DNA of 54,143 nucleotides from Mytilus trossulus (GCF_036588685.1 NC_086382.1:50143235-50197377); one strand, 5' to 3'; counted from the first letter of the stretch, positions 6,641 to 46,724 are shown. A program made the numbers and translations. The notes: generated from the sequence alone by a model not told the origin.

Positions 6641-7242
6641 GTGTGGTGAACGACTCTTGCAAAAAGAACCTCAGGATGAAGAGTTTTGAACATTCATCTT
6701 CACTTACAATAACTATAAATCTTTCCTTTTCAAGACAGTGGCCAAAAAATATGAATATCTTCTGTACTTTTGTTTAACCTATATCTTTGATATTATATAT
6801 ACAACATACTCACTGGAACACTACAGGATTCAATTTAACTTAGGCTCTTATCATTCATAATTTGAAGTAGGATTTCAGTGGGTTTTTTCAGGAGAACTTT
6901 CTTTGACTTCAATAAATACTAACTGACAAATAGGAACAGGTAATGCGTTTTGATACTCAATAATGTATTTCTCCCCTCAACCTTTTATGTTTAAATACGA
7001 AATATGCAAACAAATCCTCCTCATAACTGTAGTGAAATGACATTGATAATTAGATCGTAGCAATTTTATTTCCAATGTCAAAGATAGATTTCCCATTGGC
7101 AGAAACAATCATAAATCATTCATTTGTTTATACCTAATATTTAAATTCATTAATTATTCATAATTAAAATAATACAGGTACGTTAGTGATAATCTGCAAG
7201 AAGTCTTGCAAAGATGATACGATTTTTTCGTAGAAATGTGTA

Positions 7243-7572
7243 ATGATGTCACAAGGTGCAAACATGTTCATAGTTAAATATGTTTTATTATTTTTAAATG
7301 TTTGCAGTCCGGGTCAAACTGCGTCCAGCATTTTTCACATTCACCCAGATCGGCTTGATTCTAAGCTGCAAGGATACATTTATCTAAAATTTGAGAAAAT
7401 ACCACCGAGGTTGTGCTTTAACAAATGTATTCGGAGGCCAAATTGTCACTCGTATAACTATAATAAAGCTTTGTTGACATGTGAACTTAATAACAAGCCA
7501 AAATCTGTATCAACTGAGGATTTTTATTTTCAGAATGGATATGTATATGTTGAAATTGACCAGTACAGAGGG
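7243..7572 (+). CDS. Mucin-like gene exon 1: start codon, signal peptide and PAN/apple domain. Ends in phase 0 at donor GGG|GTATGT.
   Basis: ATG at 7243 (alternative ATG at 7264). Hydrophobic MFIVKYVLLFLNVCSPG followed by the PAN-like Cys pattern RLCFNKCIRRPNCHSYNYNKALLTCEL...YFQNGYVYVEIDQY. Canonical donor at 7573. Confidence 0.7.
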
Positions 7573-8344
7573 GTATGTAAAAATTTCATATTATAAAGAA
7601 AGGAATTTTTCTTTTAAAATATGTTTTCGAATTATTGTATTATTCTGAAAGAAAGTTTAGTTTTGAGCATTGCCCGTGATTCGTTAAGACAGGAATATAG
7701 TTAGAGTCATTATCTGTTCTAAAATCAAGCATGGATATTGTTTTAAATGCACACGAGACGTTAGATTAAAATAAAACCATTGCATATGTTTTGTATACTA
7801 GCATATGGTCAAGTTTTATAAAACAAGTGAACATAGACCTTCTTTTGAAGGAATTCTTTATCCTACCACATTCTTCAGTAATATACTGCGATCTATTGTC
7901 TTCCCATACTATAATTCGCCTTAAGCTTTTCCGTATGCAGTTAACATATATCGCAACGAGTCCATCTTTTAATAACAATAGTAAGTCGGAAACCCGTGGC
8001 GAAAAAAGGGATATCGTAAATAAATGTAGAGGTTAGCTCATGTACATTGATTTTAAAAGAAAAATAAGAAAAAACTAAATAGTTGATCAACTGTTATTAT
8101 AACAAATTTTAAGTAACTAAGTAACACATATTATATACAACAGGCGCTTTTTGACATAGACTGCTTTTTCTCGTATGCTTTCGGTGTAGAGTTTTTATGT
8201 TAAATTTTCTTAGTTATTTCACATATTTAATGCATTGTTGCTTTCGTTTTTCCAATTTTACCATAAAAGTAGTTTAAGTGTTGATATGATCATTGTAATG
8301 GTCCTTATTTTGAAATAACTGTTTACAATACTTTGAATTTTTAA

Positions 8345-10118
8345 TTAATTATGCTTTTCTATCTCTTGAATAGATTACTTTAACTGAGTTTGGCAACTAA
8401 CCTTTGAGGAAATCTTGATCCTCAATGATCGTCAACTTCGTACTTTATTTGGCCTTTTACACCTTTTATGATTCGAGCGTTACTGTTGTAGATGAAATGA
8501 GCGTCTGCGCAAATAAAAAGGAAAAGTTCATCATTTGTCACTACCAAACATTGATATATCAACATAAATGCTATCGTAATGTAGTATACAAACTTATGTT
8601 ATCGCATTTTGCATTTGAAATTATCTTCGCACAAGACTGCATATTAAAAATTTTGTTCATATAAACTACTATGAGTTCGGTAGAATATCAAAAATTTTGT
8701 TTAACTGATAAAAATTATTCCTCCATTTCTATCTAAACTAAAGATGGATTTTGAAAACGACCCATAAGTTATTTATTTGAAACAAAATATGGAAAGACGA
8801 TTTCAATACATATTATGTTTCTCCTTTTATATTCCCTAATAATTAAAAGAAAAATCATCGAAAGAAAAATCAATATGATTTTAGAACTTGATGCTACAGA
8901 AATTTAACATTAAAGATCAGAATTTTTGTTCTTCTAGTCCTACATAATTTAGGCTATGTTATCATGCGAAAAATTAAATGTGAAAAGAAAATATTAACAT
9001 TACATTGAAAGCAGAGCTGGAAAGATCTCTAAAACAAGATACCGCTGTATAGTCCCTGTGAAACATTGTTACATATTTACAGATTGTTTTCAAGTTCTTT
9101 CCTCTATTATTAATAAAAGCCATTATAGTTTCATTTCATCAGGGATTCAGATTCAAAGTAATTAACTTTTCAAAACACTAGTTTATATTGATAGGAAATT
9201 AATAAAGGTATCCAAAGAGCAAAAAATATGTCGGTCACCGTGCTTGTTTTCGAGATATGAGCCATTGAAATTTTGGCGGGAAAATATTCACTCTTGAATT
9301 TTCATTGCTTTATTATTGACAAATGGAAGTTCTCAAAAACTTTTAAAAAGTAATTAAAATTTTACTTTTATAGATAGCTTATCATTATACATGTAAAAGA
9401 TTTTCATAAAGAAAAATGGGGGTCACCGGGCAAATTTTTTCAACACATTTAAATTGATCAAACCAGCGGAATCCGAAAATCTGACGAAAAATCCAAAACA
9501 TGACAAGCCACCTTCCTTAAGACAATATATCTGTGAATAAGAACGTTCATTATTCAAAAGCATTAGACAGGTAAAGAATACCTTCTTATAAGTTGTTTAT
9601 GGAATTCATTAACACGAGAAGTAGACGCAAATAAGAATTTGGCGACACCAATATATTTTGAGAAAATTAATAAGATAAAGCCATCTTCTGTCATAAAGAT
9701 ATTATGAAATACATGTAAGCAACATACACAAAAAATGTATGAACATTTTCCATTTTGTCTTTACAAAAATCACAGAAATATCAATGAATATACCCATCTG
9801 AGTTTGAAAAGAAGTAAATAAAATGAAAAATGTAAATTTTCTTTATTTTCAATATCATTTTGCAGTAAATGAATCTGAATATAAAATACACAAAAAAGTT
9901 CTGAAGTATATTTTAAATGATGCAATCTTTGTATAATTATGCTTTTCTATCTCTTGAATAGATTACTTTAACTGAGTTTGGCAACAAACCTTTGAGGAAA
10001 TCTTGATCCTCAATGATCTTCAACTTCGTACTTTATTTGGCCTTTTACACCTTTTATAATTCGAGCGTTACTGTTGTAGATGAAACGAGCGTCTGCGCAA
10101 ATAAAAAATGTCAATCTA
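8345..10118 (+). repeat. Segmental duplication copy 2, with a body at 8527-9945 flanked by 175-bp direct repeats (8345-8520 and 9942-10118)
   Basis: The flanks share attatgcttttctatctcttgaatagattactttaactgagtttggcaac...gcgtctgcgcaaataaaaa. The body is collinear with 4765-6640 but lacks the SINE insert. It lies inside intron 1 of the mucin-like gene. Confidence 0.8.
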
Positions 10119-10342
10119 CGTTACTGTATCTATGATGAATTTGTGTATATCAGTGTCATTGTAAGATCTTGCAGATGAGCAAGAACACATTGAAATGTGA
10201 ATTTATTATCTATCCATTTGGTTTTTTTTCAATATCAAATATTGGCCTTGTTTGTTCATTGGGAAGACTATTCAAGACACCAGCGCAGTAGAATTGGTAT
10301 TATATATACTTTTATCTCATGATTCCGTCTCAATATTTTCAG

Positions 10343-10454
10343 GACCCGCTACTGGATCCATGCCATAGAAAGCCCTGCCAGTCAGCAGAGATTTGTGAAA
10401 TAAAACCGGATGGAAATACATTTTGTGTAAAAGATAACAAGTACACAATTAAAG
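10343..10454 (+). CDS. Mucin-like gene exon 2: EGF-like domain, phase 0 at start to phase 1 at end
   Basis: Acceptor ttttcAG at 10341-10342. Translation is DPLLDPCHRKPCQSAEICEIKPDGNTFCVKDNKYTIK, with EGF-like Cys spacing. Donor AAAG|GTAAAT at 10455. Confidence 0.7.
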
Positions 10455-11129
10455 GTAAATGTATCGTTGATTATCGAAAATATCTGAAATATTTGTAAAA
10501 TTTCTGTCTTGTGTATAATTAAAAAGATATTTTGCTGTAATGAAAATTAGAAAGGGAAGGGAATTGTTAAGTGGAATAATTCTTTCCTTGATTTATGCAT
10601 TCTTAACAAAAGAGTTAGTGTAATTCACTTTTTTAAGAAACAATGACTATAAAGGTAAAAATGTTTTGAATTAAAAACAAAACAATTTTCAGATTAATTA
10701 AGCATCTAATGCTGGAACTACTAGTAATTTTGATATTAATTGATAAAGTTTTATCATTGTCATTTAATGATTATTAATTTTGACATAGTATTGTCTAACC
10801 TATAAATAAAATGTCATGGGAAAAACAGATGCGAACCAATTTGAAAATAAAAATCAACGGCATGATTTATTCAAAAACAACAAATAAAGCACAATTAATA
10901 TTCGATAAAAACAAAAATTTAATTCATTTTCCAAATCAAACAAAGAATTCAAACAAATTTCATAACTTTATCCATGACATATGCATAAAATATAATTTTG
11001 GTCAATCTGAATTCCGAAAAGACATGTTGCCTGTGTCTTGGAAGCAAAACTATAAAATTCCCAAAACGTTGTGAATGCCTTTGACACTTCTTGAAAACAG
11101 TATCATACAACATAAAACGTGATATAACA

Positions 11130-11300
11130 AAAAATAACGAACTTCAATGAAATTCAATTCGCAAGTCCCTTATCAAATGGCAAAATTCAAAGCGTAAACA
11201 TTTCAAACGAACGATGAAAAACAGCAGTCATACTCATGACTTGGTACAGACATTTTCTGATGTAGAAAAATGGTGAATTAAACCTGGGATTATAGCTAGC
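11130..11300 (-). mobile_element. SINE-like element, family 2 copy, in mucin intron 2
   Basis: Collinear with 2440-2615: attcaattcgcaagtcccttatcaaatggcaaaattcaaagcgtaaacatttcaaacgaacgatg...catgacttggtacagacattttc...aaacctgggattatagc. Confidence 0.5.
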
Positions 11301-11825
11301 TGATCCTTTTTTGTACGACAGTCGCAAAAAAATCTTTATATTCACAACAGTATGTCAACAAAAGCAGTCATTATTGTGTTAAAATCTTAATGTTAAAAGA
11401 GAAATGAAATGACATATATAGACAAAGCACATAAGCAAAAATGGAAGACAAGAATACAAAAATTGGTCATGGCACAATAAAAGAATGGCAGGATATATGA
11501 ATACCGAGGCACGCCAAAAAAATATCACGGAAATGGACTAAACAGTAAATGCTAAAAATATTTATATACAAGTAAAAGAGCACGTTGCAAAACATTGAAA
11601 TTGAACGTTTTACATTCGAGTACGATCCAGATTTGGATGAATATCTTAAGTAACTTAAGATAGTATCAGCCTATCAAAATAATTTATAAACCCTCATCTC
11701 TTACAGGAGGTTTACTCAGATAGAATACGTGCCTCTTGACTGCAGGCCGTTTATAAAAGGTTTTACTAATAGCATCAACAAGTCATAAAAGTGTCATACA
11801 ATGAAGTATATTTTCTCTTTTTTAG

Positions 11826-14800
11826 AATCAACTACCACTGCAAGTGCGGTTAAAACATCAACAACAACAACTGTTGTCAATAACACTAACAAAGTTGGTA
11901 CTTCTACCGAAACGCTGTTGATAAACACCAAAGGAACAGCTGTCTTTGAGACTCGTGGATCAACATCTGACGAAGCAACTCACACATCATCATCAACCTT
12001 ACAAAAAACAACCACTCAAGCTTCGAACTCTCCGATTTCTAATGATAACCAGTCGAAAACAGTAGCACGCACAGCAAATTCTGGGAGTACACCGCCATTC
12101 ATTTCTGACACTCAGACTTTTGGTACGAGAACAAATGATACGACTGTGACAGACGCAATAACTGATGAAGATACTGTTACAGCCGTAGAAACAAACAAAC
12201 TTACATCTTTATCTTCTAATACTGTCACTACCACTAAGAATGTTGGTACCACTGCAGACACACCGTTGACAAACAAAGAACGGACATTTACTGTCTCTAA
12301 GATTAATAAATCATCATCTGACGAAACCACTCACACAGCTACAGCAAACTTGCTAGAGACAGCCGCAGATCAATTTTCGGTCTCTCAGATTACTAATAAC
12401 AAATCGACAGAAACGACGGAAACCATGGCTAGACCAGAAACGCCAACAAAAACGTCTACATCCATATCTGACACTCAGGCGATCGGCTTTACAACAGATG
12501 ATACTACGGCGACAGAAACAAAAACTAGTGAAACTACTGTCACAGACGCAAAATCTATCGAACTCACCTATTCATCGAATATTGTTGGCCCTACAAATAC
12601 CACTATTGGTACTACCGCAGAAAAACGGTTGATAGATACGGATGGTACAACTACTGTTCCCGAGACTCATGGATCACCATCTGACAACACGGCTCAAACA
12701 TCAGCAACATTATTAATGGAGACAACCGCTGATCAAGCTTTGAGTTCTCAGATTACTTATGATGAACCGAGGGAAATATCGAACATAATAACTAACTCAA
12801 CAACGCCAACAAAAACACAAGCAACCATTTCTGAGAGTCAAACAATTGACTTTACAACAGATGATAGCAATTTGACAGACGCAATACCCCATGAAGATGC
12901 TGTCACAGCTGCAGAAACCATCAAAAGTACTTCTATATCTAATACTGTTGTCACTACCACGAACACTGTTGACACTTCCGTTACAAAGCCGTTGAATAAT
13001 ACCAAAGGTACAACTGTCTTTGAGACTCATGGGTCGAAATCTGACGAAACAACTCGCACATCAACATCAACCTTGATAAAGACAACCGCTCAGCAAACTT
13101 CGAACTCTCCACCTACTTATACAAAACTGGGGGTGACGACAGAAACTATGGTTGGCTCAAAAGCCCAAACGAAAACACCGGCATTTATTTCTAACACTAA
13201 GACGATTGGCTCAAGAAAAGTTGATACAACAATAAGTGAAGTTTCTGTAACAGCTGCAAAAACAATCAAACATTTCTCTATAACAAATACTATTGGTACT
13301 ACGGAAGAAACCCCATTGATAAACACCGAAGGTATGACTACAGTCTCTGAGACTCGTGATCCAGGATCCGATGCAATAACTCACACAGCAGTAACAACAT
13401 TGCTTGAGACAACCACCGAACAAGCCCTTGTCTCTCCGACTACCAATAATAAACCGATGGAAATGACAGACACTACAGCTAGCACAGCAATGCCAACTAA
13501 AACTATCTCTGAGACTCAAGGACCAACATTTGACAAAAGCACTCACACAGCAGCAATAACCTTACAAAAAAACACTCAAGCTTCGAACGCTCCGATTACT
13601 AATGAAAACCAGACGAAAACAATAACAAGCACAGCAAATCCTGGGAGTATTCCGCCATTTATTTCTGACACTCAGACTATTGGTACTAGAACAAACGATA
13701 CCACTGTGACAGACGCAATAACTGATGAAAATACTGTCACAACTGCCAAACTTATGCCTATCATTATTGGCACTTCTACTAAGACTATTGGTACTACGGC
13801 AGAAAATCAGTTCATAAACACAAACAATACATCTATTGTCTCTCAGAATCATGGAAGACCAACTGACGAAACCACTCACACAGCAGCAACAAACTTACTA
13901 GAGACAACCACTGATCAATCGTCGGTCTCTTCCTTTACGAATTACAAACGGACAAAAACAACAAATCCTATAGCTAGACCAGATACGCTAATAAACACGT
14001 CTGCGTTCATATCTAACACTCAAATGATCGGCTTTACAACAGATGATAATACGGCTACAGCCACAACAATAAGTGAAGCTACTGACACAGACGCATATGC
14101 CATACAACGTACCTCGATGTTTAATACTGCTGGCATAACTACTAAGACTGTTGGTAGTATCCCTGATAAACATTTGACAAACACAGAAGGTGCAGCTACG
14201 ATTTTTGAGACTAATGAACCAACATCTGATGAAACAACTTACACCGCAGCCAAATCACTTGTAACAATAACCGTTGATCGAGCTTCGGACTCTCCGAACC
14301 CTAATGAAAATCCAATGGAAACGACGGAAACCATAGGTAGCTCGACAACGCAAACAAAAACGTCTAAATCCATGTATGACACTCAGACGAACGACTTTAA
14401 AACAGATGATACCATGATGACAAACACTTCAATTAGTGACGCTCCTGACACAAACGCAAACACAATCCATCTTACTTCGATGTCTAATACCACAATGACC
14501 AATGGCACTACCACCGATAAACATTTGATTAGCACAAAAGATACAAATACTGTTTTTGAGACTTATGAACCAAAATCTGACGAAACATTTTTCACAGCAG
14601 CAACAACCCTGGTAACGATAACCGCTGATCAATCTTCGGTCCCTCCGATTGCTAATGATAAACCGACGAAAACGACAGAAACCATAGCTAGCTCGGAAAC
14701 GCCAACACAAACGTCTCAATCCATTTATGACACGCAGACAATCGGTTTTACAACAGATGATAATACAGTGACAGACACAACAACTAGTGAAGCTACTGTA

Positions 14801-17800
14801 ACAGCTGCAAAAACCATCGAGGCTACCTTAATATCTAATACTGCTGGTATAACCACAAGGACCATTGGTACTATCACCGATAAGCATTTGACAAACACAG
14901 AAGGTACAACTACTGTTTCTGAGACTCGCGGATTAACATCTGACGAAACAACTTATACAGCACCAACCACCCTGCTACAGACCACCGCTGCTCCAGCTTC
15001 GGTCACTTCGATTGTTAATGATAAAATGACGGAAAAGATGAAAACCATAGCTAACTCAGAAACGCCAACAAAAACGTCTACATCCATATCTGACACTCAA
15101 ACGATCGGCTTTACAACAGATGATATAACGATGACAAACACAACAACTATTGAAGCTACTGACACAGCTGCAAAAAACATCCAACTAACCTCGATGTCTA
15201 GTTCTGTTGGCATAACCACTAAACTTGTTGGTAATATCCCCGATAAACATTTAACAAACACAGAAGGTACAACTACTGTTTCTCAGCCTCAAGAACCACC
15301 ATCTGACAAAACCACACACACAGCAGCAACAACTCTGCTAAAGACCACCGCTGATCAAACTGCAGACCCTTCGATTACTAATGATAAACCGACGGAAACG
15401 ACGTACTCCATAGATTACTCACAAACGCCAACAAAAACGTCGACGTCCATATTTGACTCTCAAACGATCGGCATTACAACAGTTGATACTATGATAACAG
15501 ACAAAACAATTATTGAAGCTACTGACACAGGCTCAAACATAATCCAACTCACGTCGATGTATAATACTGCTGACATAACTTCTAGTATCATTGGTACAAC
15601 CACCGATCAACATTTGACCAACACAGAAGGTACAACTATTGTTTCTGAGACTCATGAACCACCATCTGACGAAACAACACACACAGCAGCCACAATTTTG
15701 CTAGAAACATCTGCTGGTCAATCTTCGGTCACTCCCATTACTAATTATAAACCGACGGAAACGATGGAAGCCACAGTTAGCTATGAAACGCCAATAATAA
15801 GGTTTACATCCATGTTTGACACTCAGACAATCGGTTTTACAACAGATGATAATACGGTAACAGACACAACAACTAGTGAAGCTACTGTAACAGCTGCAAA
15901 AACCATCGAGGCTACCTTAATATCTAATACTGCTGGTATAACCACAAGGACCATTGGTACTATCACCGATAAGCATTTGACAAACACAGAAGGTACAACT
16001 ACTGTTTCTGAGACTCGCGGATTAACATCTGACGAAACAACTTATACAGCACCAACCACACTGCTACAGACCACCGCTGATCCAGCTTCGGTCACTTCGA
16101 TTGTTAATGATAAAATGACGGAAAAGATGAAAACCATAGCTAACTCAGAAACGCCAGCAAAAACGTCTACATCCATATCTGACACTCAATCGATCGGCTT
16201 TACAACAGATGATATAACGATAACAAACACAACAACTATTGAAGCTACTGACACAGCTGCAAAAAACATCCAACTAACCTCGATGTCTAATACTGTTGGC
16301 ATAACTACTAAACGTGTTGGTAATATCCCCGATAAACATTTAACAAACACAGAAGGTACAACTACTGTTTTTCAGTCTCACGGACCAACATCTGACGAAA
16401 CCACACACACAGCAGCAACAACCCTGATAAAGACCAACGCTAATCAAAGCGCAGACCCTTCGATTACTAATGATAAACAAACGGAAACGACGGACTCCAT
16501 AAATAGATCAGAAACGCCAACAAAAAAGTCTACACCCATATCTAACACTCAGACGGTCGGCTTTATAACAGATGATCCTACGATGACAGACACAGCTAGT
16601 GAAGCTACTGTAACAGCTGCAAAAACCAATGAACTTACCTCGATATCTAATACTGCTAGCATAACAACTAGGACCATTGGCGCTACCACCGATAAACATT
16701 TGACAAGCACGAAAGGTACAGCTATTGTTTCTGAGACTTATAAACCAACATCTGACGAAACAACTTACACGGCAGCAACAACCCTGCTAAAGACAACCGC
16801 TGATTCAGCTTTGGTCACTTCGATTACGAATGATAAATTGACGGAAACGACGGACTCTATAGATAGATCAGAAACGTCAACAAAAAAGTCTACACCCATA
16901 TCTGACTTTCAGACGATCGTCTTTACAACAGATGATCCTACGATGTCAGACAAAACTAGTGAAGCTACTGTAACAGCTGCAAAAACCATCGAACTTACCT
17001 CGATATCTAATACTGCTGGCATAACAACTAGGACCATTGGCGCTACCACCGATAAACATTTGACAAGCACGAAAGGTACAACTATTGTTTCTGAGACTTA
17101 TAAACCAACATCTGACGAAACAACTTACACGGCAGCAACAACCCTGCTAAAGACAACCGCTGATTCAGCTTTGATCACTTCGATTACGAATGATAAATTG
17201 ACGGAAACGACGGACCCCATAGATAGATCAGAAACGCCAACAAAAAAGTCTACACCCATATCTAACACTCAGACGATTGGCTTTACAACAGATGATCCTA
17301 CGATGACAGACACAGCTAGTGAAGCTACTGTAACAGCTGCAAAAACCAATGAACTTACCTCGATATCTAATACTGCTATAATAACAACTAGGACCATTGG
17401 CGCTACCACCGATAAACATTTGACAAGCACGAAAGGTACAGCTATTGTTTCTGAGACTTATAAACCAACATCTGACGAAACAACTTACACGGCAGCAACA
17501 ACCCTGCTAAAGACAACCGCTGATTCAGCTTTGGTCACTTCGATTACGAATGATAAATTGACGGAAACGATTGACTCCATAGAAACGTCAACAAAAAAGT
17601 CTACACCCATATCTGACATTCAGACGATCGTCTTTACAACAGATGATCCTACGATGTCAGACACAACTAGTGAAGCTACTGTAACAGCTGCAAAAACCAT
17701 CGAACTTACCTCGATGTCTTATACTGTTGACATTACCACTAATACTGTTGATACTACAGAAGGAGAATCATTGATAAACACAGAAGGTACAACTTTTGTC

Positions 17801-19015
17801 GTTGAGACTCATGAACTAAAATCTGAGAAAACATCATTCACAACAGAAACATCATTTGTAGATACAACCGTTGATCACGCTGCGGACTCTTTGATCATGA
17901 ATAATAAACTTACGTCAACATCCGCAAGTAGTGTCGAACTTTCTTATAGAACTACTAATAAGAATATTGACAAATCCGCTGACATTTCATCTACAAACAC
18001 CGAAGGAACAACTATTTTCTCTGAGACTCATGAACCACCATTTGACAAAACAGCTAACACATCCCTTACAACCTTGGTAGAGACAACTGCTGGTCAAGCT
18101 TTAGTCTCTCCGATCACAATTAATAAACAGATGGAAACGACAGACACAAAAGCTAGCGCGGCAACGCCAACAAAAACGCTGGCATCCATTTCTGAAACAA
18201 ATGGATTTACAACAGATTATACGACTGTGACAGACGCAACCATTAATGAAGCTACTGTCATATCCGCAAAAAAACTTACCTCTGTGTATAATACTCCTGG
18301 AACTACCACTAATAATATCGATGACAAAACCGTTAATATTCAATTGACTAACAACGAAGGTACAACTGTCTCAAAGACTCATAGAGCGACAGCTGACGAA
18401 TCAACTCACAAAGCAACGACAACCTTGCTAGAGACCACAGCTGTTCAAACTTCGAACGCTCCGTTCAATCATGATAAACCGACGGAACTGACGGACACTG
18501 TAGCTGGCTCAGAAACCCTTATGATAACATCGGCATCAATTTCTGACTTTCATACGATTGGCACTAGAACATATGATACGACTGTGACAAAACAACCAAC
18601 GGATGAAGTTCCTTTCACAGCCTCAGAAAACATTAAACTAACCTCTACTTCTGCTCATATTGGCACTATCATTAACACTGTTGGTACTACCGCAGAAAAT
18701 TCGCTGACAAGCACCGAAGGAACAACAACTATATATGAGACTCATGGACCAACAATTGACAAAACAACTATTACAGCGGCTTATCAACCTTCGATCATTC
18801 CGATCACTGATAATGGACAAACGGAAACGACAGACACAATAGATAGCTCAGCAACGCCATCGAAAACAACAGCATCCATTTCTGAAACTCAGACGGTTGG
18901 TCTAACAACAGATGATGCTACTGTAACAGACGCAACAACTAGTGAAGCTACTATCACCGTCGCAAAAACCATCGAACTTACCTCCAAATTAAATTATACT
19001 AGCACTTCCACTTAA
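11826..19015 (+). CDS. Mucin-like gene exon 3: about 2395 aa of Thr/Ser-rich (PTS) tandem-repeat domain, with stop TAA at 19013-19015
   Basis: Acceptor ttctcttttttAG at 11824-11825. G(10454)+AA(11826-27) gives GAA=E, which is exactly in frame with the long ORF (..ESTTTASAV). The 120-aa repeat consensus is ..TPTKTSTSISDTQTIGFTTDD.T.TDT.SEATVTAAKTIELTS.SNTAGITTRTIG.TTDKHLTNTEGTTTVSETH.P.SDETTHTAATTLL.TTADQ.S...ITNDK.TETT. Confidence 0.75.
16480..17650 (+). repeat. Higher-order repeat inside the mucin CDS: 720-bp periodicity (two alternating 360-bp subunit types), at least 3 near-identical copies
   Basis: Identical reverse-strand ORF artefacts 16508..16699 and 17228..17419 lie exactly 720 bp apart. 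Subunit types alternate: NTQT(V/I)GF..MTDTAS..KTNELTS..GTAIV versus D(F/I)QTIVF..MSD(K/T)TS..KTIELTS..GTTIV. Confidence 0.85.
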
Positions 19016-19265
19016 ACTATTGGTATTTCCTCCGAACAATCTTTGATAAACACCGAAGATACAACAGTCTTTGAGACTCATCGACCAACTTCTGACGAAA
19101 CAACTCACACAGCAGCAACAACCTTGTAAGAGACAACCGCGGATGAAGCTTTGATCTTTGCGATTACTTATAATGAACCAAGGGAAACGACAGACACGGT
19201 TTCGGGCTCAAAAACGCCTACAAAAACATCGGCATACATTTCTTAAAGTCAGCAAATTGGCACTA
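19016..19265 (+). pseudogene. Decayed continuation of the mucin repeat array after the stop codon, with 3 in-frame stops
   Basis: In the same frame the translation is TIGISSEQSLINTEDTTVFETHRPTSDETTHTAATTL*ETTADEALIFAITYNEPRETTDTVSGSKTPTKTSAYIS*SQQIGTTAEYIDN*. It is clearly repeat-unit-like but interrupted. Confidence 0.6.
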
Positions 19266-19595
19266 CAGCAGAATATATCGATAATTGATACTACATGTAA
19301 ATGGTCTTGTAGGCTACAGCTGAGGAAGATTATTTCATAGATATATATTGATATTATTGATAATTACCTGAAATACATTTGTTGCCCAGATATTTTGTAC
19401 TCCGGCTGAGGAAATGACTGCAACGTGTCGTGCTACATCGTGTGTAACGTTCGAAGTTACATTTCCTTGTATCTTTGGAATTATAGATTTGATAAAGATT
19501 TTTAAAGCAACCATTACTTTGCCATATGATTGGACTCTTACAGTTGTGAACGAGACTGTTAAATCAAGTCACAAATTCAATAAAAACCATTGAAG

Positions 19596-26089: not shown

Positions 26090-26380
26090 GATTCTGTTGG
26101 AAAATTTCAATTAAACATAGGTCAGGGAAAATTTCAATTGAAAAAATGCCAGGGAAAACTTTCAATTGTCAGAACAAATGCCAGGGAAAATTTTAATTAA
26201 ACATCATGAACATATGCCAGGGAATATTTCAATTGAAAAAATGCCAGGGAAATTTTCAGTGGAAAAAATGCCAGGGAAAATTTCAATTAAACATATGCCA
26301 GGTAAAATTTTCAATTGAAAAAATGTCAGGGAAAATTTCAATTGAAAAAAAATGCCAGGGAAATATTTAGTTGTGATTTA
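26090..26380. repeat. Minisatellite with a 30-37 bp unit (atgccagggaaaatttcaattgaaaaa), about 9 copies
   Basis: Direct tandem copies with variable linkers, visible at 26100, 26150, 26185, 26215, 26250, 26270, 26300, 26325 and 26350. Confidence 0.8.
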
Positions 26381-27221
26381 TGGTGTCTAATTTTTGATAC
26401 CTTTGAAGCATGACATTTATTACCTGCTGCCATCCCCACCTCAAAGACCAACACACCCTCCCTTGACACCTCCACTATTCCTTACTTATTTAGTCCTTGC
26501 TATGCTCTATCAGAAAATATAAACAAACCTTTCGTATGATCCAACATCTTTTTAAACCTTTTCACATACTCTTATTTTTTTCAATTAAAATAACATGATG
26601 TGGTATGATTGGCAATGAGTTTAATATCCTTTTCCGATAAATCCAATGACCAATTAAGTGAGGTGGATTTAAGAAGGCCTGTTGACCATTGCTTGACCTT
26701 TAACAATTATTATCCTCCTGTGTCCATCCAAAACCAGGATACTTTTATGAGGCTATTTATTTGGTATCTCTATCATGAATCTATTATAATTAGTGTTTAT
26801 AATTTTAGTCATGCTCTATTTTTCAGATAAAAAGATGTCAATATTTAGTGATTGTCAGATAGTCCTGGACTTGACTACCAGTGTCAACTTTAAGAAAAAG
26901 ACAGAAATCAGGAAAATTATCACTAATAATGGAGGAGTTATATCCTATATTGTCACTAAAAAGGTAAACATCATAGAGCCTGCCATTTTACAAATTCCAG
27001 TTTTTAGAATTTTATAATATAACAAGGTGTGGTGGATTATTGCCAATGAGACAACTGAAATTCAACAAAGGTCAAAACTTCAATAATCAAGATTTTAAAA
27101 AGCAATTTTATCATTTAACAATTGTTCTTGCAAAGTTCCGGACAGTTGAATTTAAGTGTTACCAAGAGAATTGAAAAGGAAGTTTAATATGACAAACCAT
27201 ACTACTTATATAGTAACCATT

Positions 27222-27940
27222 TTTCGTAAATCCTAGTAATCTTTTACAAAAATCTTCTCCTCTGAAACTAGGTTGCCAAATTTAACCAAACTTGGCCACA
27301 ATCATCATTGGGGTATCTTGTTTAAAATTTGTGTCCGGTGACTTGATCAACTATTCAAGATGGCCGCCATGGCTAAAAATAGAACATAGGGGTAAAATGC
27401 AGTTTTTGGCTTATAACTGAAAAACCAAAACATCAAGAGCAAATCTGAAATGGGTAAAAAAAATTATCAGGTCAAGATCTATCTGCCCTGAAAATTTCAG
27501 ATGAATCGAAACAAACCGTTGTTGGGTTGCTGCCCCTGAATTGGTAATTTTAAAGAAATTTTGCTGTTTTTGGTTATTATCTTGAATAAAATTATAGATA
27601 GAGATAAACAGTAAACAGCACTTAAGATTTACAAATAAGTCAACATGACCGATATGGTCAGTTGACCCCTTTAGAGTTACTGCCCTTTAAAGTCAATTTT
27701 CAACATTTTTCATAAATTTTTGTAGATTTTTCGAAAATATTTTCCACTGTAATTACTGGGCCAAGTTCATTATATATAGAGCTAATTGTAGCAACAAGAA
27801 TTTTCAGTAAAGTAAGATCTACAAACACATCACCATCATCAAAACACAATTTTGTTATGAATTTATCTGTGTCCATTGTTTAATATGCACATAGACCAAA
27901 GTGAGTGACACAGGCTCTTGAGAGCCTCTAGTTTTAAGGT
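27222..27940 (+). mobile_element. Truncated single-unit copy of the composite element seen at 40430-43460: one 480-bp satellite unit plus tail, lacking the terminal repeats
   Basis: Collinear with 42060-43300: taatcttttacaaaaatcttctcctctgaaact...ccaagatggccgcc..ggctaaaaatagaacataggggtaaaatgcagtttttggcttataac...cacaggctcttgagagcctctagtttt. Confidence 0.7.
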
Positions 27941-29039
27941 CTTATAGCCACTTTAACAAGTTAAATTTGATTGTTTTATTATTTGTTTTAAATGACCTAC
28001 AATATGACAGCAGAGGAAATAACTCTTGCTAAGGTTGGTGCATCTGATGACCATTGATTCAATTAAAAATATCTGTTGCAAACAGGTGATTTTACTTCTT
28101 TAAAATAAGTGCTTAGTGGGTAATATAAATGAAAAATGAGCCTTACTTCAGATGACTGGATTTTCAAGGTTCAAAGAGCATTTTTATTTATTTCTCAAAT
28201 TTCATAGCTTTGATTAAGAACAGTAAATTCAGAAATGATTGCATTCAATATATAATGTATTATTGCAATATTTTAAGAATGGACAAAAATACTAGTTTAG
28301 TTATTGTTGTGATTCCAGGAAAATATTCGGTTCATTCTGGCTATTCCTACATTTTGAATTTTATAGGTAAAATAGTAAAATTTTATGTAGGAGTCCCCAG
28401 AATTTTTGTGTAAACAATGGGATTATGTAGGATTATCTTGTAACAACACTAAACTAATGATATTTTATGAATCAAGGTAAATGCAGGTTATTCTTGTAGA
28501 AAATAAAGAAAAAGAATAATTTATATCAAAATTCAGTGGTTGTCGTTTGTTTATGTATAAAATACTTGTTTTTCGTTCATTTTTTTTTCTATATATAAGG
28601 CCGTTAGTTTTCTTGTTTGAATTGTTTTTCATTGTCATATCGGGTCCCTTTTATAGCTAACTATGCGGTATGGGCTGTGCTCATTGTTGAACGCCATACG
28701 GTGACCTATAGTTGTTAATGTCTGTGTCATTTTGGTCACTTGTGGACAGTTTTCTCATTGGCAATCATACCACATCTCCTTTTTTTTTTTTATATATATT
28801 TGAGGCTGAAGTTGAAAGTGTGGGTAGCTATTAATTTTCTTTTTAAATACGTTTTTTTCCAGACTTTCCAGACTTTCCAGACTAAATTAAATTAATAAAT
28901 AAATATTTTATTGCTTTTACTACTTTTTCTTTCATTTCATTTTTATTTTTCCAATGCTTTTACTCCCTTTTCTTTCAATTAAATATATTTTATTTTAGAA
29001 ATTCCATGGTATTAAAATACTTAAAAATATTACTTTATG

Positions 29040-29850
29040 CATGTTTTCAAACAAAAAAGTCGCATTTTTTGGGCGTATGACATTTGCGCCGATTTTGAAA
29101 ATTTTCATTCTTTCATTTGCGCCGATTTCATTTTTTCATTTGCGCCGATTTTATATTTTTTCCTAATTGGATTTACAGGTAAGTTACAGGTAAGTTCATA
29201 CTTTAACATTGGCCGAGCACAGAGTATAAAGACAAATCAAGTGACATTGCAATTGGTAAATGGCTATCCCAATGTTTCGGGTTACCATTCCGTTGGCTTT
29301 CCCTAAATGAAATCGATGACTGCTTCACGTTTGACATTGTCTGACGCTCCGCTCCTTCTGATGGCAAATTTTATACATTCGTAGACAACGTACAAGTACA
29401 CATTCCATAACGGTCAACCAATTCGTGATGGTGTCCATAAAATTAACGGAGGAATGATTTCAACTTCACCATGTGGAACTCTTGGTTTAATAGTTCCCTT
29501 GTGAGAAAATGCGAACTCTAGAAATACCCCACCAGTACAGTACGTATGCCAGACAAAGAAAAGATGACCTTCTTTATCGACAATTACGCCAAATATAGAA
29601 GAGACGAAATCATAAGAAAGGAATATATGTGTTGCCTACTATACATACTCGGCAAAAACCGAGATTTATGATTTGAATGTATTCCGTTTTTATGGATTTG
29701 AATGCTGTACATATATTTTTTAATTCGTCATTTTAGTATAAACAAAGTGCTTTTATCTCAGGTTTTTATTTCTTGATTTAAAAGACAAAATTGGCGCAAA
29801 TGAAATGCAGATCGGCGCAAATGCAAAATGCCGCATTTTTTACATATAAA
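29040..29850. mobile_element. Candidate TIR element of about 0.8 kb with subterminal repeats: catttgcgccgatt x3 at the left end and aatcggcgcaaatg / ggcgcaaatg in inverted orientation at the right end
   Basis: Left end: aaaaaagtcgcattttttgggcgtatgacatttgcgccgattttg..catttgcgccgatttc..catttgcgccgatttt. Right end: ttggcgcaaatgaaatgcagatcggcgcaaatgcaaaatgccgcatttttt. The two ends are reverse complements. Confidence 0.45.
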
Positions 29851-30651
29851 TAATGATTTTTATCTAATTTCCGCAGGTAAATGTGCCTTTGACCAAATTA
29901 GACACTAACGACTAAAACAACATATTTTGCAATAAAAACATGTATTGTTCTTCCACTAATCCCCCATGTAGGAATAGCCAGAATAGTAAAATACAAAATG
30001 TAGGAATAGCCAAATATTCATACTGAGGAATGTATCTGATATTAGAATGCAAGTTCTAATTATTTTGATACTACCCCAGTTATTATTCCCATTAATAAAA
30101 AACTAACAAGAATTTTTGAATTCACTGTAAATATGACTATTTATATCTAATTCTTCCTCAATTTATCCCTTTCTGCACCCATTGTATAAAAAAATTTAAT
30201 CAGCATGTGGTTTGTTTGATCTAAGTACTTCATTGGTTAAAATCCGATTATGACGTCGAATTTTCTTGCTTTCCTCTAAAATTCCTATTTTGACGGCATG
30301 AAAAAAGGCGACCATGCCTCAGGCGGCCATCATCATGACGTCACATAGAAAGAACACTTTATTTTGCAGATCATTCGAAAAGAAGGAATAAGTGTGCCCG
30401 CATATAATGTTAGAAAATCATTAGAGAAACAGATTCCACCACCAAATCTCGTGTAATACAATATTTATCCACTCATGACAGTTAAATTTAAAATATTTAA
30501 AACACTCTGGCAAGCCTCACGTTTTAAATTTGAAAATTTAACTTTCTCTAGTTGATTAATATTATATTACACTCGATGCAGCGGTAGAATCTATATGTTT
30601 TCCCAAATCCAACTAATAATTTCACTTGACTATTTACAAATTTATTTACAG

Positions 30652-31169
30652 AGTACACATGTTGTTTGTAATGACCCAGAAAAGGGAGATATCAGTAACA
30701 AATGTAAAATGGCCACAAAGTATGGATTACCAGTAGTGTCACTTGATTATATCCATGATTGTGTAGACCAGGGGAGACTACTCAGTTGTCTAGTTTATTA
30801 TATGTTTCTGGTTTATTTTCAGAGTACACATGTTGTATGTAATGATCCAGAAAAAGCAGATATCAGTTCAAATGTAAAATGGCCACAAAGTATGGAATAC
30901 CAGTAGTGCCGCTTGATTATATCCATGATTGTGTAGACCAGGGGAGATTACTCTGTTGTCTAGTTTGTTATATGTTTCTGGTTTATTTACAGTGTACACA
31001 TGTTGTTTGTAATGATCCAGAAAAGGCAGATATCAGTTACATGTACAAATGTAAAATGGCCACAAAGTATGGATTACCAGTAGTGTCACTTGATTATATC
31101 CATGATTGTGTAGACCAGGGGAGATTACTCTGTTGTCTAGTTTGTTATATGTTTCTTGTTTATTTACAG
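30652..31169 (+). repeat. Three extra tandem copies (units of about 171, 170 and 177 bp) of the 3-prime end of an intron plus the 5-prime 130 nt of the PARP4 BRCT exon. Each copy carries an acceptor but no donor.
   Basis: The units begin at 30652, 30823 and 30993. Each starts with ..tttatttacAG (a/t)GTACACATGTTGT.TGTAATGA.CCAGAAAAGG.AGATATCAG...ATGGCCACAAAGTATGGA.TACCAGT.GTG.CACTTGATTATATCCATGA.TGTGTAGACCAGGGGAGA.TACTC and then switches back to pyrimidine-rich intron-like sequence. Confidence 0.85.
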
Positions 31170-31368
31170 AGTACACATGTTGTATGTAATGACCCAGAAA
31201 AGGCTGATATCAGTTACAAATGTAAAATGGCCACAAAGTATGGATTACCAGTGGTGTCACTTGATTATATCCATGACTGTGTAGACCAGGGGAGATTACT
31301 CAATACAGATAATTACATCCTGGTTGGAAAAACAAAGTCACAAGAATTCAGCTCAGGAAAGATAACAG
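31170..31368 (+). CDS. PARP4: PARP4-like exon: BRCT domain C-terminal half (fourth and only complete copy). Ends phase 1 at donor ACAG|GTAAAAG.
   Basis: Translation is STHVVCNDPEKADISYKCKMATKYGLPVVSLDYIHDCVDQGRLLNTDNYILVGKTKSQEFSSGKIT. I aligned this to my recollection of human PARP4 as ..THIILDNADVLSQYQLNSIQKNHVHIANPDFIWKSIREKRLLDVKNYDP, which is not a database check. Acceptor AG at 31168-31169, donor GT at 31369-31370. Confidence 0.65.
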
Positions 31369-32478
31369 GTAAAAGAAAATGAAAAAAATAAACAAACTAA
31401 TTTTATAAACGGAAAAGGGGTATCAATCTCAATTTTAGCCTACTGTTTGTTTGAAGTTTTGAAACTTTTTTAAAATTAGAAATATTTTTTTCAATATTCT
31501 TAAGATTTCCAAAGTACAAATCTCTGAATACAATATGTATCACATTGGTTTTAAAAGGTAATGCTTGCGCAACTGATTCAATTTCTGATTTCTTCCCTTG
31601 TATGACTCTCTTTAGACCCTTCTGAAATTGTCAAAATCTATTTAAAAATTCAACCAATTTAGCATTGACTGGTGCCTGTAGGTTCAGATATCAAGATGCA
31701 AGAGTAAATTTGTAGATAACAAAATGTTATGACCTTAAACATGTTAAAAGGTATGTAATGCCTATTTATAATTTTAAATGGCTTGCAGACTTCTAATATT
31801 GTTCAGCAGGTCTGAACGTACTTACGGAAAATTAATATTTTATATTAATATATTATGCTTAATAGACAACTTTTGTGTTCGATGCATTTCCATCAAAAAC
31901 TCTTGTTTTTGTGAACGTCATTTGTGCGTCACTTTCATTCCTATGTTGAGTGAGTGGTTGGAAGACCACAATTCTATATTGTACGAATTATTTGGTAAAT
32001 TGAATTCTCAAAATTGACCATCAGCATTGCTGTCATTAGGGAATTGTCATTAAGTACTTACAGAACAGCCATTACTTCTAGTTTATCCGGCACAATAACG
32101 ATCACTAAGATGCTTGATGAATGTAAATAGTGCAGGGATACAGGCGACCCCCTCTATCTGGTAAATGACGTCATAAAGGCGTGTATAATTGACGAGTTTT
32201 TTCAGGTGACAGATGAACTCAAAAGTGGTCTATTATGTTATGTCCATTTATTGTAGAAGCGAAGTGTATTATTACACAACAAGGGTATCATCTGGGTCCT
32301 CATAATGGACACATTCTCCATTTATATCAATATTTATTTGTCTTAACAATACAACATTTACTTGGCTTACAGATGAGGTAAAAAGTAGCAGACATGTGAT
32401 GAATTGTTAAATATTAGAATATTTAGACATGATGAATATAAACAATGATAAAGATGAATGATTTGTTTTTATTTGCAG

Positions 32479-32621
32479 CCTCGAAATATCAGAGCAAAGA
32501 ACCCAAGAAGAAGAAATTTAAAATTGACCCTAAGAATGTTAAAGTTTGGAAGACAGAAGATAAAAATGCCCCAGAGTACAATGAAAAAGACTATGAAGTG
32601 GCCAAGTATGCCATATTTCAG
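32479..32621 (+). CDS. PARP4: PARP4-like exon, phase 1 in to phase 0 out. The donor is the non-canonical CAG|GCAAGG (GC-AG class).
   Basis: G(31368)+CC gives Ala. The translation ASKYQSKEPKKKKFKIDPKNVKVWKTEDKNAPEYNEKDYEVAKYAIFQ continues the frame exactly. KDYEVAKY matches the PARP4 motif I recall as DFEVAKY. Acceptor tttatttgcAG at 32477-32478. Confidence 0.55.
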
Positions 32622-33184
32622 GCAAGGAATAATTCTGGGTTTTTTTTCATTTTTTAGAAATTATAGAAATAAACAATTTTGAATTAGATTTAAAAAAATA
32701 AAAAAAGATAAGAGATGAAAGCAATTTAAATGATATTTTGCTTTTCATCTCTTTGTCTGTGCTGAGCTGGTAGTCAGATAGTATTTTAAATACTAGTTCT
32801 TAAGTCAGTAATTTGCACTGGAGCATTTTGTGTTTCCTGTTGTCCACATTTTTTTGTGATAACTTGAAGTTGATTTTACATTGAGTGTTTAAAAATTGGA
32901 TTCCCATCTATATGGAATACTTAGGAAAATTAGACACCCCGATGGATCTTAACTATTATTCTGCACAAATAAAAAGTATATATAAACTTGTAAGTGAGGA
33001 AAGTAAACTTAAAATACATATCAAGTCCTTTTCCATATTTCTGTGATTGATTTCATCAAAACCGATAATTATATATTAATTTTTTGGTTAATACATTTAA
33101 AAAAAATTTAATTGTATATTTGTGTCTGTTACAAAAGATTTTGGAACAAACCAATTTTTAAAGAAGTCTATTTTATTTATTTCA

Positions 33185-33415
33185 AAAGACCTACTGTGGA
33201 TTCATTTATTTTCGTGGGTATCAATTTTCGTGGAATGCTGAAAACTTGCATATTCGTGGATATTAGATTTCGTGGTTTTGCCAATCTCTGTATACAACGC
33301 CTATTGAAAATATGATATTCGTTGAACATTTGAATTCCTGGTTCACCCGTTCCCATGAAATCCACGAAAATTGATATCCAACGAATATTAATGAATCCAC
33401 AGTATATGTGCTGTG
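33185..33415. mobile_element. MITE of about 230 bp with 45-bp TIRs (ACTGTGGATTCATT...ATCAATTTTCGTGGA) and TA flanks. A related copy lies at 33880-34095.
   Basis: The left end actgtggattcatttattttcgtgggtatcaattttcgtgga is the reverse complement of the right end tccacgaaaattgatatccaacgaatattaatgaatccacagta. The second copy has the same termini. Both lie in a PARP4 intron. Confidence 0.6.
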
Positions 33416-34199
33416 TGTGTTTATTACTAAGCATACAATATATTTGCTTGTGAGAGAATTGCTCACTATTTGGTATGGGCTTTGCTCATTTTTGAAGGCT
33501 GTACGGTGATCTATAGTTGTAAATTTCTGTGTCATTTGGTCTCTTGTGGAGAGTTGTCTCATTGACAATCATATCACATCTTGTTTTTTTTATATATATA
33601 CAATATTCCTTATTAGTAAAACTTTAAATGATAGCTTACATGTTACTTATATTGTAGTTATATATTTCAGAAATATGACAAGTTAAAAGAGACGACACTG
33701 TTTTATAATTTGGAGATACATGTAGCTGATCCTGTAGATTTAAACAGATCAGACTGTTATAGATTTAGAGTATTTTCACACCATGGTTCTACAGCTGAGA
33801 TTGAGGTAGATCAGATTATCAGATTGTAATTGTTTGATTTCCAAATTTTAAGAGGATTCATAAGTTAATAAACAAGTACTGTGGATTCATTATTATTCTT
33901 TGAATACCAATTTTAATGGATTCTGGGGTACAGGTGAACCACAAAATATAAGTTTGAAGAATAGAAAATTATCTATTGACTAAATGTGTGAAGAATTTGG
34001 CAAAAAACATGAAATTAAATATCCACAAACATATTTCCTTAAGCCACGAAAATTGGTGGTACCCATGAAAATGAATGAATCAATAGTAGCTGTCAAATTA
34101 ATATAATTGATTAGTTTATAAGTTGCGCTGTGCAATATTTTTATACAACCGCAAAAGTTGGAAAAAAATTTGGTCACATATTGGTATGACATTTGTGTC

Positions 34200-35140
34200 C
34201 TCATCTTCGTCCGAAGACATTTGGTTTTCGCACTATAACTTTAGTATAAATTTATAGAATTCTATGAAATTTAAACACAAGGTTTATGACCATATAAGGA
34301 AGGTTGGGATTGATTTGGGGAGTTTTGGTCCAAACAGTTTGGGAATTAGGGGCAAAAAAGGGCCCAAATAAGCATTTTTCTTGGTTTTCACACAATAACT
34401 TTGTAATATAAGATTTATGACTACAAAAGAAAGGTTGGGAATGATTTTGTGAGTTTTGGTCCAAACAGTTTAGGAATTAGGGACCAAAAAAAGTCCCAAA
34501 GAAGCATTTTTCTTGTTTTTTGCACAATAACTTTACTATAAGTACAGAAATCTATGAAATTTTAACACCAGGTTTATGATCACAAAAGGAAGGTTGGGGT
34601 TGATTTTGGGAGTTTTTGTCCCAACAGTTTAAATTAGGGTCTAAAAGGGTCCAAAATTAAACTTTGTTTAATTCATCAAAAAATTAATTATTGGGGTTCT
34701 TTGATATGCCAAATCTAACCGTTTATTCAGATTCTTAATTTTTGGTCCGGTTTTCAAATTGGTCTACATTAAGGTCCAAAGGGTCCAAAATTAAATTTAG
34801 TTTGATTTTAACAATTATTGAATTCTTGGGGTTCTTTGATATACTGAATCTAAACATGTACTTAGATTTTTGATAATGGGCCCAGTTTTCAAGTTGGTCT
34901 AAATCAGGGTCCAAATTTAAACTTGTTTGATTTCAACAAAAATTGAATATATTGCGTTCTTCAATATGCTGAATTTAACCATGTATTTAGATTTTTTATA
35001 TTTGGGCCTGGTTATCAAATTGGTCCACATTGAGGTCTAAAGGGTATAAAATTGAACATTATTTGTTTTCATCAAAAAAATAATTCTTGGGGTTCTATGA
35101 TATTCTAAATCTAACCATGTATTTAGATTTTGGACCATAA
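34200..35140. repeat. Two adjacent intronic tandem arrays: about 3 units of 150-160 bp (34200-34640), then about 4 units of 125 bp (34640-35140)
   Basis: Array A repeats ..aggttgggattgattttgggagttttggtccaaacagtttgggaattagggg.caaaaaagggcccaaa.aagcatttttcttggtttt. Array B repeats ggtccaaa.ttaaa.ttgtttgattt..caaaaa.t.aat.cttggggttctttgatat.ctgaatctaaccatgtatttagatttt. Confidence 0.75.
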
Positions 35141-46437: not shown

Positions 46438-46724
46438 TTCCGGTCAGAAATCCGGGTGAAACGGGTAATGTTAGAAATTCCCGGGACCCGCCGGGTTAAG
46501 AAAAACTCCCGGGTGAGAGGTGAAAATAACGGGTGTCACCCGCAAAAAACGGGTGATTTGACAGGTATGAAGTGCTGGTAATTCAAATTTGCATAATTCC
46601 GGACATTTTAGTACGTCAGCTCTTTATATTTTGTGTACTAAAATGTTAACAAGATATACAATTGAAAAAAGTACTAAAACAATGTAAGATTCAAAACATA
46701 ATATGATTTATTTTTATCTGACAG

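Follow-up and report, generated by a model that had tools for sequence, protein, structure and literature searches.

In a 54,143-nucleotide (nt) stretch of the Mytilus trossulus genome (NC_086382.1:50143235-50197377), hereafter the window, we found a plus-strand gene at positions 7243–19015 that probably encodes a secreted, non-gel-forming, lineage-restricted mucin-like glycoprotein. It is one gene of three exons. The segments 7243–7572, 10343–10454 and 11826–19015 join in frame to give a coding sequence of 7,632 nt and 2,543 amino acids (aa), in which the sole stop codon is the terminal TAA at 19013–19015. The predicted product carries a short N-terminal head, consisting of a putative signal peptide, a PAN/apple domain and a four-cysteine module, and a giant array of Thr/Ser-rich repeats that makes up 94% of its length.

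Exon 1 (7243–7572, 110 codons) encodes the putative signal peptide and the PAN/apple domain, and it ends in phase 0 at the donor GGG/GTATGT. Intron 1 (7573–10342) follows with GT...AG ends. Exon 2 (10343–10454) is immediately preceded by ...TATTTTCAG and immediately followed by GTAAAT. Its 112 nt (37 codons plus 1 nt) run from phase 0 to phase 1 and encode the four-cysteine module DPCHRKPCQSAEICEIKPDGNTFC plus NKYTIK. After intron 2 (10455–11825), exon 3 (11826–19015) begins behind ...TTTTTTAG, where G+AA forms Glu in the frame of a 2,404-codon open reading frame (ORF) at 11801–19015. It encodes a 2,395-aa Thr/Ser-rich, acidic, Cys-free region closed by the TAA. The joining of three exons proposed in the initial annotation was thus confirmed in its coordinates, its phases 0 and 1 and its GT/AG sites. 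The spliced head contains the peptides LQGYIYLK and SVSTEDFYFQNGYVYVEIDQYR; GDPLLDPCHR spans the exon 1/2 junction, and the first residue of ESTTTASAVK comes from the codon split between exons 2 and 3.

The model was compared with loci of two related mussels. Two loci are syntenic with the window, L002 of M. edulis (OY782965.1) and L005 of M. galloprovincialis, and in all three a PARP4-like gene lies downstream on the same strand. The M. galloprovincialis annotation, which supports the model, joins the same three exons at two loci. One is the syntenic ortholog, VDH98076.1 (UniProt A0A8B6BYW0, "Apple domain-containing protein", 1,682 aa). The other, VDI39534.1 (L004), lies at a different locus beside SCAN-domain and TRPM2-like genes and is a paralog; it uses exactly the ...FCVKDNKYTIK/E... 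junction of the M. trossulus model. Like the M. trossulus product, the orthologs (VDH98076.1 and the M. edulis locus) have a signal peptide, a PAN domain, a four-Cys module and repeats. Head identity is 88–91%, and at the DNA level exon 3 matches over its first 1.7 kb with ~87% identity. The YRG/D sequence at the exon 1/2 junction also recurs in predicted proteins of several Mytilus paralogs.

Conservation followed the exon boundaries. Across species, exon 1 was 90–92% identical (91% in amino acids against L002) and exon 2, over the 97 nt in common, was 96% identical in both M. edulis and M. galloprovincialis, whereas the introns were 77–83% identical (intron 2, 77–80%). The aligned parts of intron 1 were 80–83% identical to the orthologs, compared with 90–96% for the flanking exons. 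Between M. trossulus and M. edulis, the ratio of non-synonymous to synonymous substitution rates (dN/dS) was 0.14 for exons 1 and 2 together (17 synonymous and 11 non-synonymous differences), with 0.12 for exon 1 and 0.24 for exon 2. Judged from these comparisons, the head is under clear purifying selection.

The exon 2 donor has moved between species. In M. edulis and M. galloprovincialis it is GATA/GTAAGT, 15 nt upstream of the M. trossulus donor, so their products have no NKYTI insert. At that position M. trossulus reads GATAACAAGT with no GT, and it uses AAAG/GTAAAT instead. In the other two species the downstream GT is lost, and an in-frame TAA precedes its position. Both donors leave phase 1 (exons of 97 and 112 nt), and M. 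edulis L002 carries one exon 2. Such a phase-keeping shift is the behavior that would be expected of a spliced, translated exon. The acceptor tract and AG of exon 3 are conserved as well. Because the junctions, the donor shift, the acceptor, the exon-versus-intron identity and the dN/dS values agree across species, we consider the three-exon model very likely to be correct.

The head was analyzed for sorting signals and domains. The only hydrophobic segment of the whole product is N-terminal (residues ~8–21; Kyte–Doolittle maximum at residues 5–24) and forms a plausible signal peptide at 7243–7314, MMSQGANMFIVKYVLLFLNVCSPG/QT, with the cleavage site guessed from the -3/-1 rule. The Met conserved across species is M8, at 7264. 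Pfam PAN_1 (PF00024) matched the spliced product at aa 57–102 (7411–7548) with 26.5 bits against a gathering cut-off of 21.4 (E=5.9e-6), in agreement with the PAN/apple domain of the initial annotation; orthologs and paralogs likewise passed the cut-off with 23.2–27 bits. Among solved structures the head came closest, though weakly (E=0.001–0.002), to 2yil ("microneme antigen L2"), whose two apple domains both aligned to the stretch around the PAN cysteines. The disulfide core of a PAN domain has four cysteines and a full apple domain has six. Here, Cys 58, 62, 68 and 80 are invariant in the family, and the outer pair of the full apple domain is lacking. Run on the 167-aa N-terminus as a single sequence without an alignment, AlphaFold2 gave a predicted local distance difference test score (pLDDT) of 36, too low for the model to be of use.

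The exon 2 module has the pattern C-x4-C-x5-C-x9-C (Cys 117, 122, 128 and 138). It had been described as EGF-like, a label derived from cysteine spacing. An EGF domain has six cysteines paired C1–C3, C2–C4 and C5–C6, whereas this module has four, and no Pfam EGF or FOLN match was found at E<=10 in this gene or in four paralogs, so the label is at best a loose one. The sole PDB match was the follistatin-type N-terminal hairpin of SPARC, with the four cysteines aligned at E=3.7, and we regard it as a lead. The mature head contains eight cysteines; with this even number, it has no evident free thiol for disulfide-linked multimers.

The array was delimited with Tandem Repeats Finder (TRF), repeat-family and tblastn searches. 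It occupies 11918–19039 on the plus strand and holds ~20 units of 117–121 aa, with a TRF period of 363 nt. Up to 21 copies were detected by repeat search (families D1–D19) and by tblastn of the unit consensus, all in one frame. The 20 start-to-start spacings (363, 360, 351, 327, 495, 570, 699, 822 nt and so on) are all multiples of 3. The array is most regular at 13778–17851. In the unit alignment A1, identity to the central unit was 45–60% for outer units and 60–94% for inner units. The youngest units, at 16340–17770, are 93–96% alike, indicating that the array is still growing by unit duplication. The giant Cys-free, Thr/Ser-rich array of ~120-aa units reported in the initial annotation therefore stands.

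The repeat part contains 28% Thr and 10% Ser (38% together), 3.7% Pro, ~12% Asp plus Glu (Asp 6.5%), 5.1% Lys, 3.3% Gly and 1.3% Tyr, with no Cys and no Trp. The polypeptide has a pI of 4.5, a mass of 253 kDa and 23 N-x-S/T sequons. The product contains the motif DKHLTNTEGTTTVSET... as well as the peptides ATVTAAK and HLTNTEGTTTVSETR. AlphaFold2 on one unit with a 14-row alignment gave a pLDDT of 37 and a predicted template modeling score of 0.14; the unit has no confident predicted fold, and the array is likely to be intrinsically disordered.

A repeat profile was built from 14 units of the window (alignment A1) and searched against 1.84 billion representative proteins. It found four clusters, all from Mytilus, and as far as this library shows the repeat is confined to that genus. 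The repeat matched no Pfam family, and against solved structures the profile returned only noise (E>=0.08). These searches agree with the earlier remark that the repeat belongs to no recognized family. One cluster is the window ORF itself, which is RefSeq XP_063404517.1 of M. trossulus. The other profile matches were VDH98076.1/VDH98077.1, VDI39534.1, XP_071133558.1, CAG2205454.1 and a 146-aa protein, P0003, from M. galloprovincialis and M. edulis. Their names are hypothetical, unnamed, "mucin-22-like" or "salivary glue protein Sgs-3-like", and UniProt titles two of them "Apple domain-containing protein".

Several features of the array point to a maintained reading frame. Exon 3 has no stop in the coding frame and 138 and 268 stops in the other two. 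The open frame is not due to chance, since the copies also share one frame and their spacings are multiples of 3. In a 1.6-kb one-to-one repeat segment with 76% amino-acid identity to M. edulis, no nonsense difference was seen, whereas ~5.6 were expected from the 137.5 missense differences (P=0.0035). dN/dS in this segment was 0.89. Weak sequence constraint is usual for the Pro/Thr/Ser-rich (PTS) domains of mucins. In the repeats, constraint would thus appear to act on composition, length and open frame rather than on exact sequence, with the frame protected.

The array runs on for ~100–110 codons beyond the TAA. This "fossil" repeat unit (19016–19345, plus strand) continues in the frame of the ORF and contains three further stop codons, compared with none in the 2,395 codons before the TAA (3 of ~110 after it; Fisher P=8e-5). 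The TAA takes the place of the Arg/Lys of the ...ITTRTIG... motif, so that a nonsense substitution within the array terminates the protein. The 7.5 kb from the array to the PARP4-like gene (19–26.5 kb) held no ORF of recognizable domain content, only 13–26% of it aligned to the orthologous loci in scattered blocks, and tblastn with the discoidin-like tail of an M. coruscus paralog gave no match in the window. With no C-terminal domain found there, the protein is taken to end at the first in-array stop. A scan for AATAAA was uninformative in this AT-rich DNA (162 sites versus 156 expected).

The array structure was also compared with that of the orthologs, in which the unit is 123 aa (369 nt), ~3 extra units stand at the array start and the ORF ends at an A7 frameshift after ~1,400–1,550 aa. 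In M. edulis, two A6-to-A7 changes in ATAG(A)nCAAC break the array into three ORFs (1,428, 600 and 146 codons), and removal of one A per site yields 2,304 open codons. The A6/A7 state varies by unit and assembly: 7,6,6,6,6,7 in L002, 6,7 in L003 and 6,7,7,6,7 in L005. The A7 sites, each a +1 frameshift, lie at 7794 and 9640 in L002, 6901 in L003 and 17985, 18355 and 19095 in L005. They represent either real length-truncating frameshift alleles or homopolymer assembly errors. The initial annotation had raised the concern that the ORF might be a repeat-expansion artefact. Independently assembled M. edulis and M. galloprovincialis genomes carry arrays of comparable size, 6.7–7.3 kb. Three species and several assemblies thus agree, and the M. 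trossulus array is not an assembly artefact.

Some of these observations, and some of the database models, weigh against a secreted mucin-like protein encoded by three exons. The NCBI pipeline annotated only the large ORF in M. trossulus, or fragments of it in M. edulis, without the head, and evidence for the exon joining could for that reason be weak or even lacking. In both M. edulis and M. galloprovincialis, +1 frameshifts break up the orthologous array. The repeat dN/dS of 0.89 is equally what decaying sequence would give. The proline content of the array (3.7%) is below a 5% threshold.

The foremost alternative, which we consider unlikely, is that the gene is decaying or silent, as a pseudogene or an expanding coding-derived satellite whose open frame is a by-product of recent unit duplication. 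The near-neutral dN/dS of the orthologous repeat segment, the splitting of ortholog arrays into at least three ORFs, the stop inside the array with repeat units beyond it and the 93–96% likeness of the youngest units would all fit such a history. It does not account for the head, where dN/dS is 0.14 and splice sites, phase and upstream block are conserved. Recent duplication does not explain the older, diverged units (45–60% identity), which are also free of stops and frameshifts, and all 20 spacings preserve the frame. The deficit of nonsense differences (none versus ~5.6) and the three stops in the lone post-stop unit argue in the same direction. Finally, truncation within a C-terminal array would still leave a functional head with a shorter brush.

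Somewhat less probable still is the model present in RefSeq, an entry that the initial annotation missed. XP_063404517.1, "mucin-3A-like" [Mytilus trossulus], has 2,404 aa and corresponds exactly to ORF 11801–19015; our exon 3 region is identical to it except for its first 8 residues. It represents the same locus and ORF, but it starts at an ATG within intron 2 and lacks the signal peptide, the PAN domain and the four-Cys module. The name is a composition-driven label and does not denote orthology to vertebrate MUC3A. Under this model the ORF would be a stand-alone single-exon gene, and the PAN and four-Cys exons would be a separate small gene or none; headless M. edulis annotations, XP_071133558.1 and the 146-aa "Sgs-3-like" protein, follow the same pattern. 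Against it, ATG 11801 sits in the polypyrimidine tract of the conserved exon 3 acceptor and is GTG in M. edulis. The RefSeq N-terminus, MKYIFSFLE, has a hydrophobic core too short for a signal peptide, and such a product would presumably never meet Golgi O-glycosylation. Since exons 1 and 2 end in phase 1, they need a further exon to join, and the next acceptor that is both conserved and in phase belongs to exon 3. The M. galloprovincialis models, moreover, join the three exons at two loci. No publication on the gene or its records was found in the literature searched, and none of the Mytilus mucus-proteome papers listed dealt with it.

The product was then compared with known classes of mucin. 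Published thresholds for a mucin are more than 25% Ser plus Thr, at least four tandem repeats and repeats over more than one-third of the length (PMC2515642); the values here are 38%, ~20 units of 117–121 aa and 94%. The same source cites a threshold of at least 5% proline used in some mucin screens, and demotes to "mucin-related" only repeats without prolines; those of this array do contain proline. A gel-forming mucin of the MUC2/MUC5 type was rejected: Pfam found no VWD, C8, TIL, cystine-knot or CysD domain, and the 2,395-aa repeat part has no Cys. The initial annotation's term gel-forming does not hold for a protein with no Cys outside its head and an even number in the mature head. A transmembrane mucin of the MUC1/MUC3/MUC4 type was also rejected, with no second hydrophobic segment and no SEA or NIDO/AMOP/VWD domain by Pfam.

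Caenorhabditis elegans LET-653 contains PAN domains, a mucin-like linker and a ZP domain (PMC4970718). Like the predicted mussel product, it is secreted, with N-terminal PAN followed by a Ser/Thr-rich mucin-like region, and its role is that of an apical extracellular matrix component. It differs in its second PAN domain, in a linker that is short and in a ZP polymerization domain at its C-terminus; the mussel product has one PAN domain, a giant array and no C-terminal domain. A PAN–mucin–ZP protein of this type was rejected, as Pfam found no ZP domain and the product ends inside the array.

Mussel foot proteins are basic, with short repeats rich in Tyr/3,4-dihydroxyphenylalanine (DOPA), Lys and Gly. 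A DOPA byssal adhesive was rejected on the basis of 1.3% Tyr, 5.1% Lys, 3.3% Gly and a pI of 4.5, and the byssal or adhesive role suggested by the initial annotation is unlikely. The least probable alternative, which we judge very unlikely, is a secreted protein other than a mucin, either a byssus or shell structural or adhesive protein (such as an acidic Ca-binding matrix glycoprotein) or an array of folded 121-aa beta-rich units: the pI of 4.5 with ~12% Asp plus Glu, the regular hydrophobic positions and short predicted strands of the units and the NCBI name "salivary glue protein Sgs-3-like" for one fragment are compatible with it, but low Tyr, Gly and Lys and acidic charge are unlike basic DOPA-rich foot proteins, 6.5% Asp is far below Asp-rich shell-matrix proteins, and a folded unit agrees poorly with a pLDDT of 37, with no similarity to Pfam families or solved structures and with near-neutral unit conservation, which a folded domain would not tolerate.

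For the mucin-like glycoprotein that we favor, the following mode of action is proposed. The signal peptide would send the product into the secretory pathway. In the Golgi, dense O-glycosylation would turn the ~2,400-aa array (~20 units of 121 aa) into an extended "bottle-brush" that is hydrated and carries negative charge. The conserved, disulfide-bonded head (four-Cys PAN/apple plus a four-Cys hairpin, with no spare Cys) probably binds a glycan or protein partner, which would localize or cross-link the brush non-covalently in mucus or on the epithelial surface. Tethered or targeted in this way by its head, the brush may lubricate, act as a barrier or coat particles, either in mucus or in the epithelial surface coat.

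The head belongs to a larger family. A head profile (alignment A5) found 14 proteins, and those with names are all from Mytilus. The paralogs share the signal peptide, the PAN domain and the four-Cys head (50–57% identity), and their exon 1/2 junction is the same. They differ in their third part, which is a globular domain of ~70–110 aa with no repeat array. These C-termini are of recognition type: P0013 (M. edulis) has a fibrinogen C-terminal domain (PF00147) and P0022 (M. galloprovincialis) a C-type lectin domain (PF00059), and the C-terminal domain of P0001 (M. coruscus, 213 aa) and of P0019 is discoidin-like by eye, with no Pfam match. tblastn of the repeat unit against the M. coruscus paralog locus L001 found no trace of it. 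Across the family, a common secreted head thus appears to be joined to alternative third parts, with the giant Thr-rich array present here and in L004. In L001, the gene model next to the PAN-head paralog on its downstream side has MACPF and ApeC domains (apextrin-like; 26263–34861, minus strand) and runs on the opposite strand, an immune-type neighborhood for the PAN-head family.

We tentatively suggest, as a speculative scenario, that a mucin emerged from a Mytilus family of PAN-headed lectin-type proteins through replacement of the lectin domain by an expanding Thr-rich exon of de novo origin, with the in-array stop setting the length. Mammalian MUC7 and rodent Muc10 are orphan mucins that arose by gain of exonic PTS repeats, a process termed "mucinization" (PMC9417175). 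They resemble the mussel gene in being small secreted proteins with a large, copy-number-variable, poorly conserved, Thr/Ser-rich exonic repeat of restricted lineage and no VWD or cystine-knot polymerization domains. Repeat-less relatives also exist, here the lectin-tailed PAN-head paralogs. MUC7 and Muc10 share no homology with the mussel gene, whose unit of 121 aa is by far the longer and is acidic and poor in proline (3.7%). Its precursor family is PAN-headed, not proline-rich, and the change could have been either a gain of repeats or a swap of the C-terminal exon. If the lectin-to-array step did occur, it would be an invertebrate case of mucinization.

Upstream of the gene, a 250-bp block at 6993–7242 (plus strand) shared 87% identity with the ortholog of M. 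galloprovincialis (L005) and 91% with the paralog L004. It contains a TATTTAAAT motif ~95 nt before the ATG and, from its conservation, is likely to comprise the core promoter and 5' untranslated region. The further 350 bp upstream were 73% identical to L005 and 86% to L004. A short upstream ORF of 9 codons, ATGATACGATTTTTTCGTAGAAATGTGTAA (7214–7243, plus strand), ends on the gene's first ATG. Both M. galloprovincialis copies read ACG in place of the ATG at 7214, so this ORF is specific to the M. trossulus sequence. Over the upstream and intron DNA at 6643–11825, the non-syntenic paralog L004 was 85–91% identical to the window, compared with 73–87% for the syntenic ortholog L005, whereas the start of exon 3 was much closer to L005 (87%) than to L004 (68%). 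This pattern points to gene conversion between the two loci or else to a more involved history.

The window as a whole is eukaryotic in character: its G+C content is ~31%, its genes are split, and it is rich in both interspersed and tandem repeats. The PARP4-like (vault PARP) gene downstream of the mucin-like gene spans 26790–54143 on the plus strand and has BRCT, PARP, VIT and VWA domains, with exons for BRCT at 26790–27014 (the first exon), VIT at 49547–49801 and 50296–50670 and VWA at 52075–52305. At 30641–31301 (plus strand), a 177-nt unit consisting of the second half of BRCT plus a short spacer is repeated 3.8 times with 91% identity. It is in frame (59 codons) and open over three copies, and the ORF 30846–31379 has two Pfam BRCT matches. 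It could be an exon-plus-mini-intron duplication in the PARP4-like gene or a real internal half-BRCT repeat. A remnant of a hAT-family transposase (45937–46443, minus strand; C-terminal dimerization domain PF05699, E=3e-9) lies inside an intron of the PARP4-like gene. Non-coding tandem arrays were found at 48–991 (79 nt x 12), 53028–53357 (76 nt x 4.3), 34221–35131 (~131–135 nt), 37129–37846 (193 nt x 3.8) and 40538–40986 (167 nt x 2.7), and are probably satellite- or short interspersed nuclear element-like. The array at ~34.2–34.7 kb has an M. edulis counterpart at L002 20015–20441.

The gene was already known in public databases as uncharacterized predictions. What is new is the corrected M. 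trossulus model, the phase-preserving donor shift, the in-array stop codon and the link to the lectin-tailed PAN-head family. The RefSeq models of M. trossulus and M. edulis, which lack the signal peptide and PAN head, mislabel a probably secreted protein, and the three-exon model corrects this. As an ordinary lineage-specific mucin-like protein, it does not overturn current understanding. Non-gel-forming mucus glycoproteins of bivalves are little known at the gene level, and bivalve mucus matters for particle sorting, interactions with pathogens and in larval settlement, and pollutant binding. With a head of presumably defined fold on a giant brush, the protein is a tractable candidate for expression and ligand screening. 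Together with its lectin-tailed paralogs, the locus may illustrate in an invertebrate how mucins originate by repeat gain. If that origin is true, brush length would be set by a nonsense substitution in M. trossulus or by A6/A7 slippage in M. edulis and M. galloprovincialis, and brush-length variation between species and individuals would be heritable and possibly selectable.

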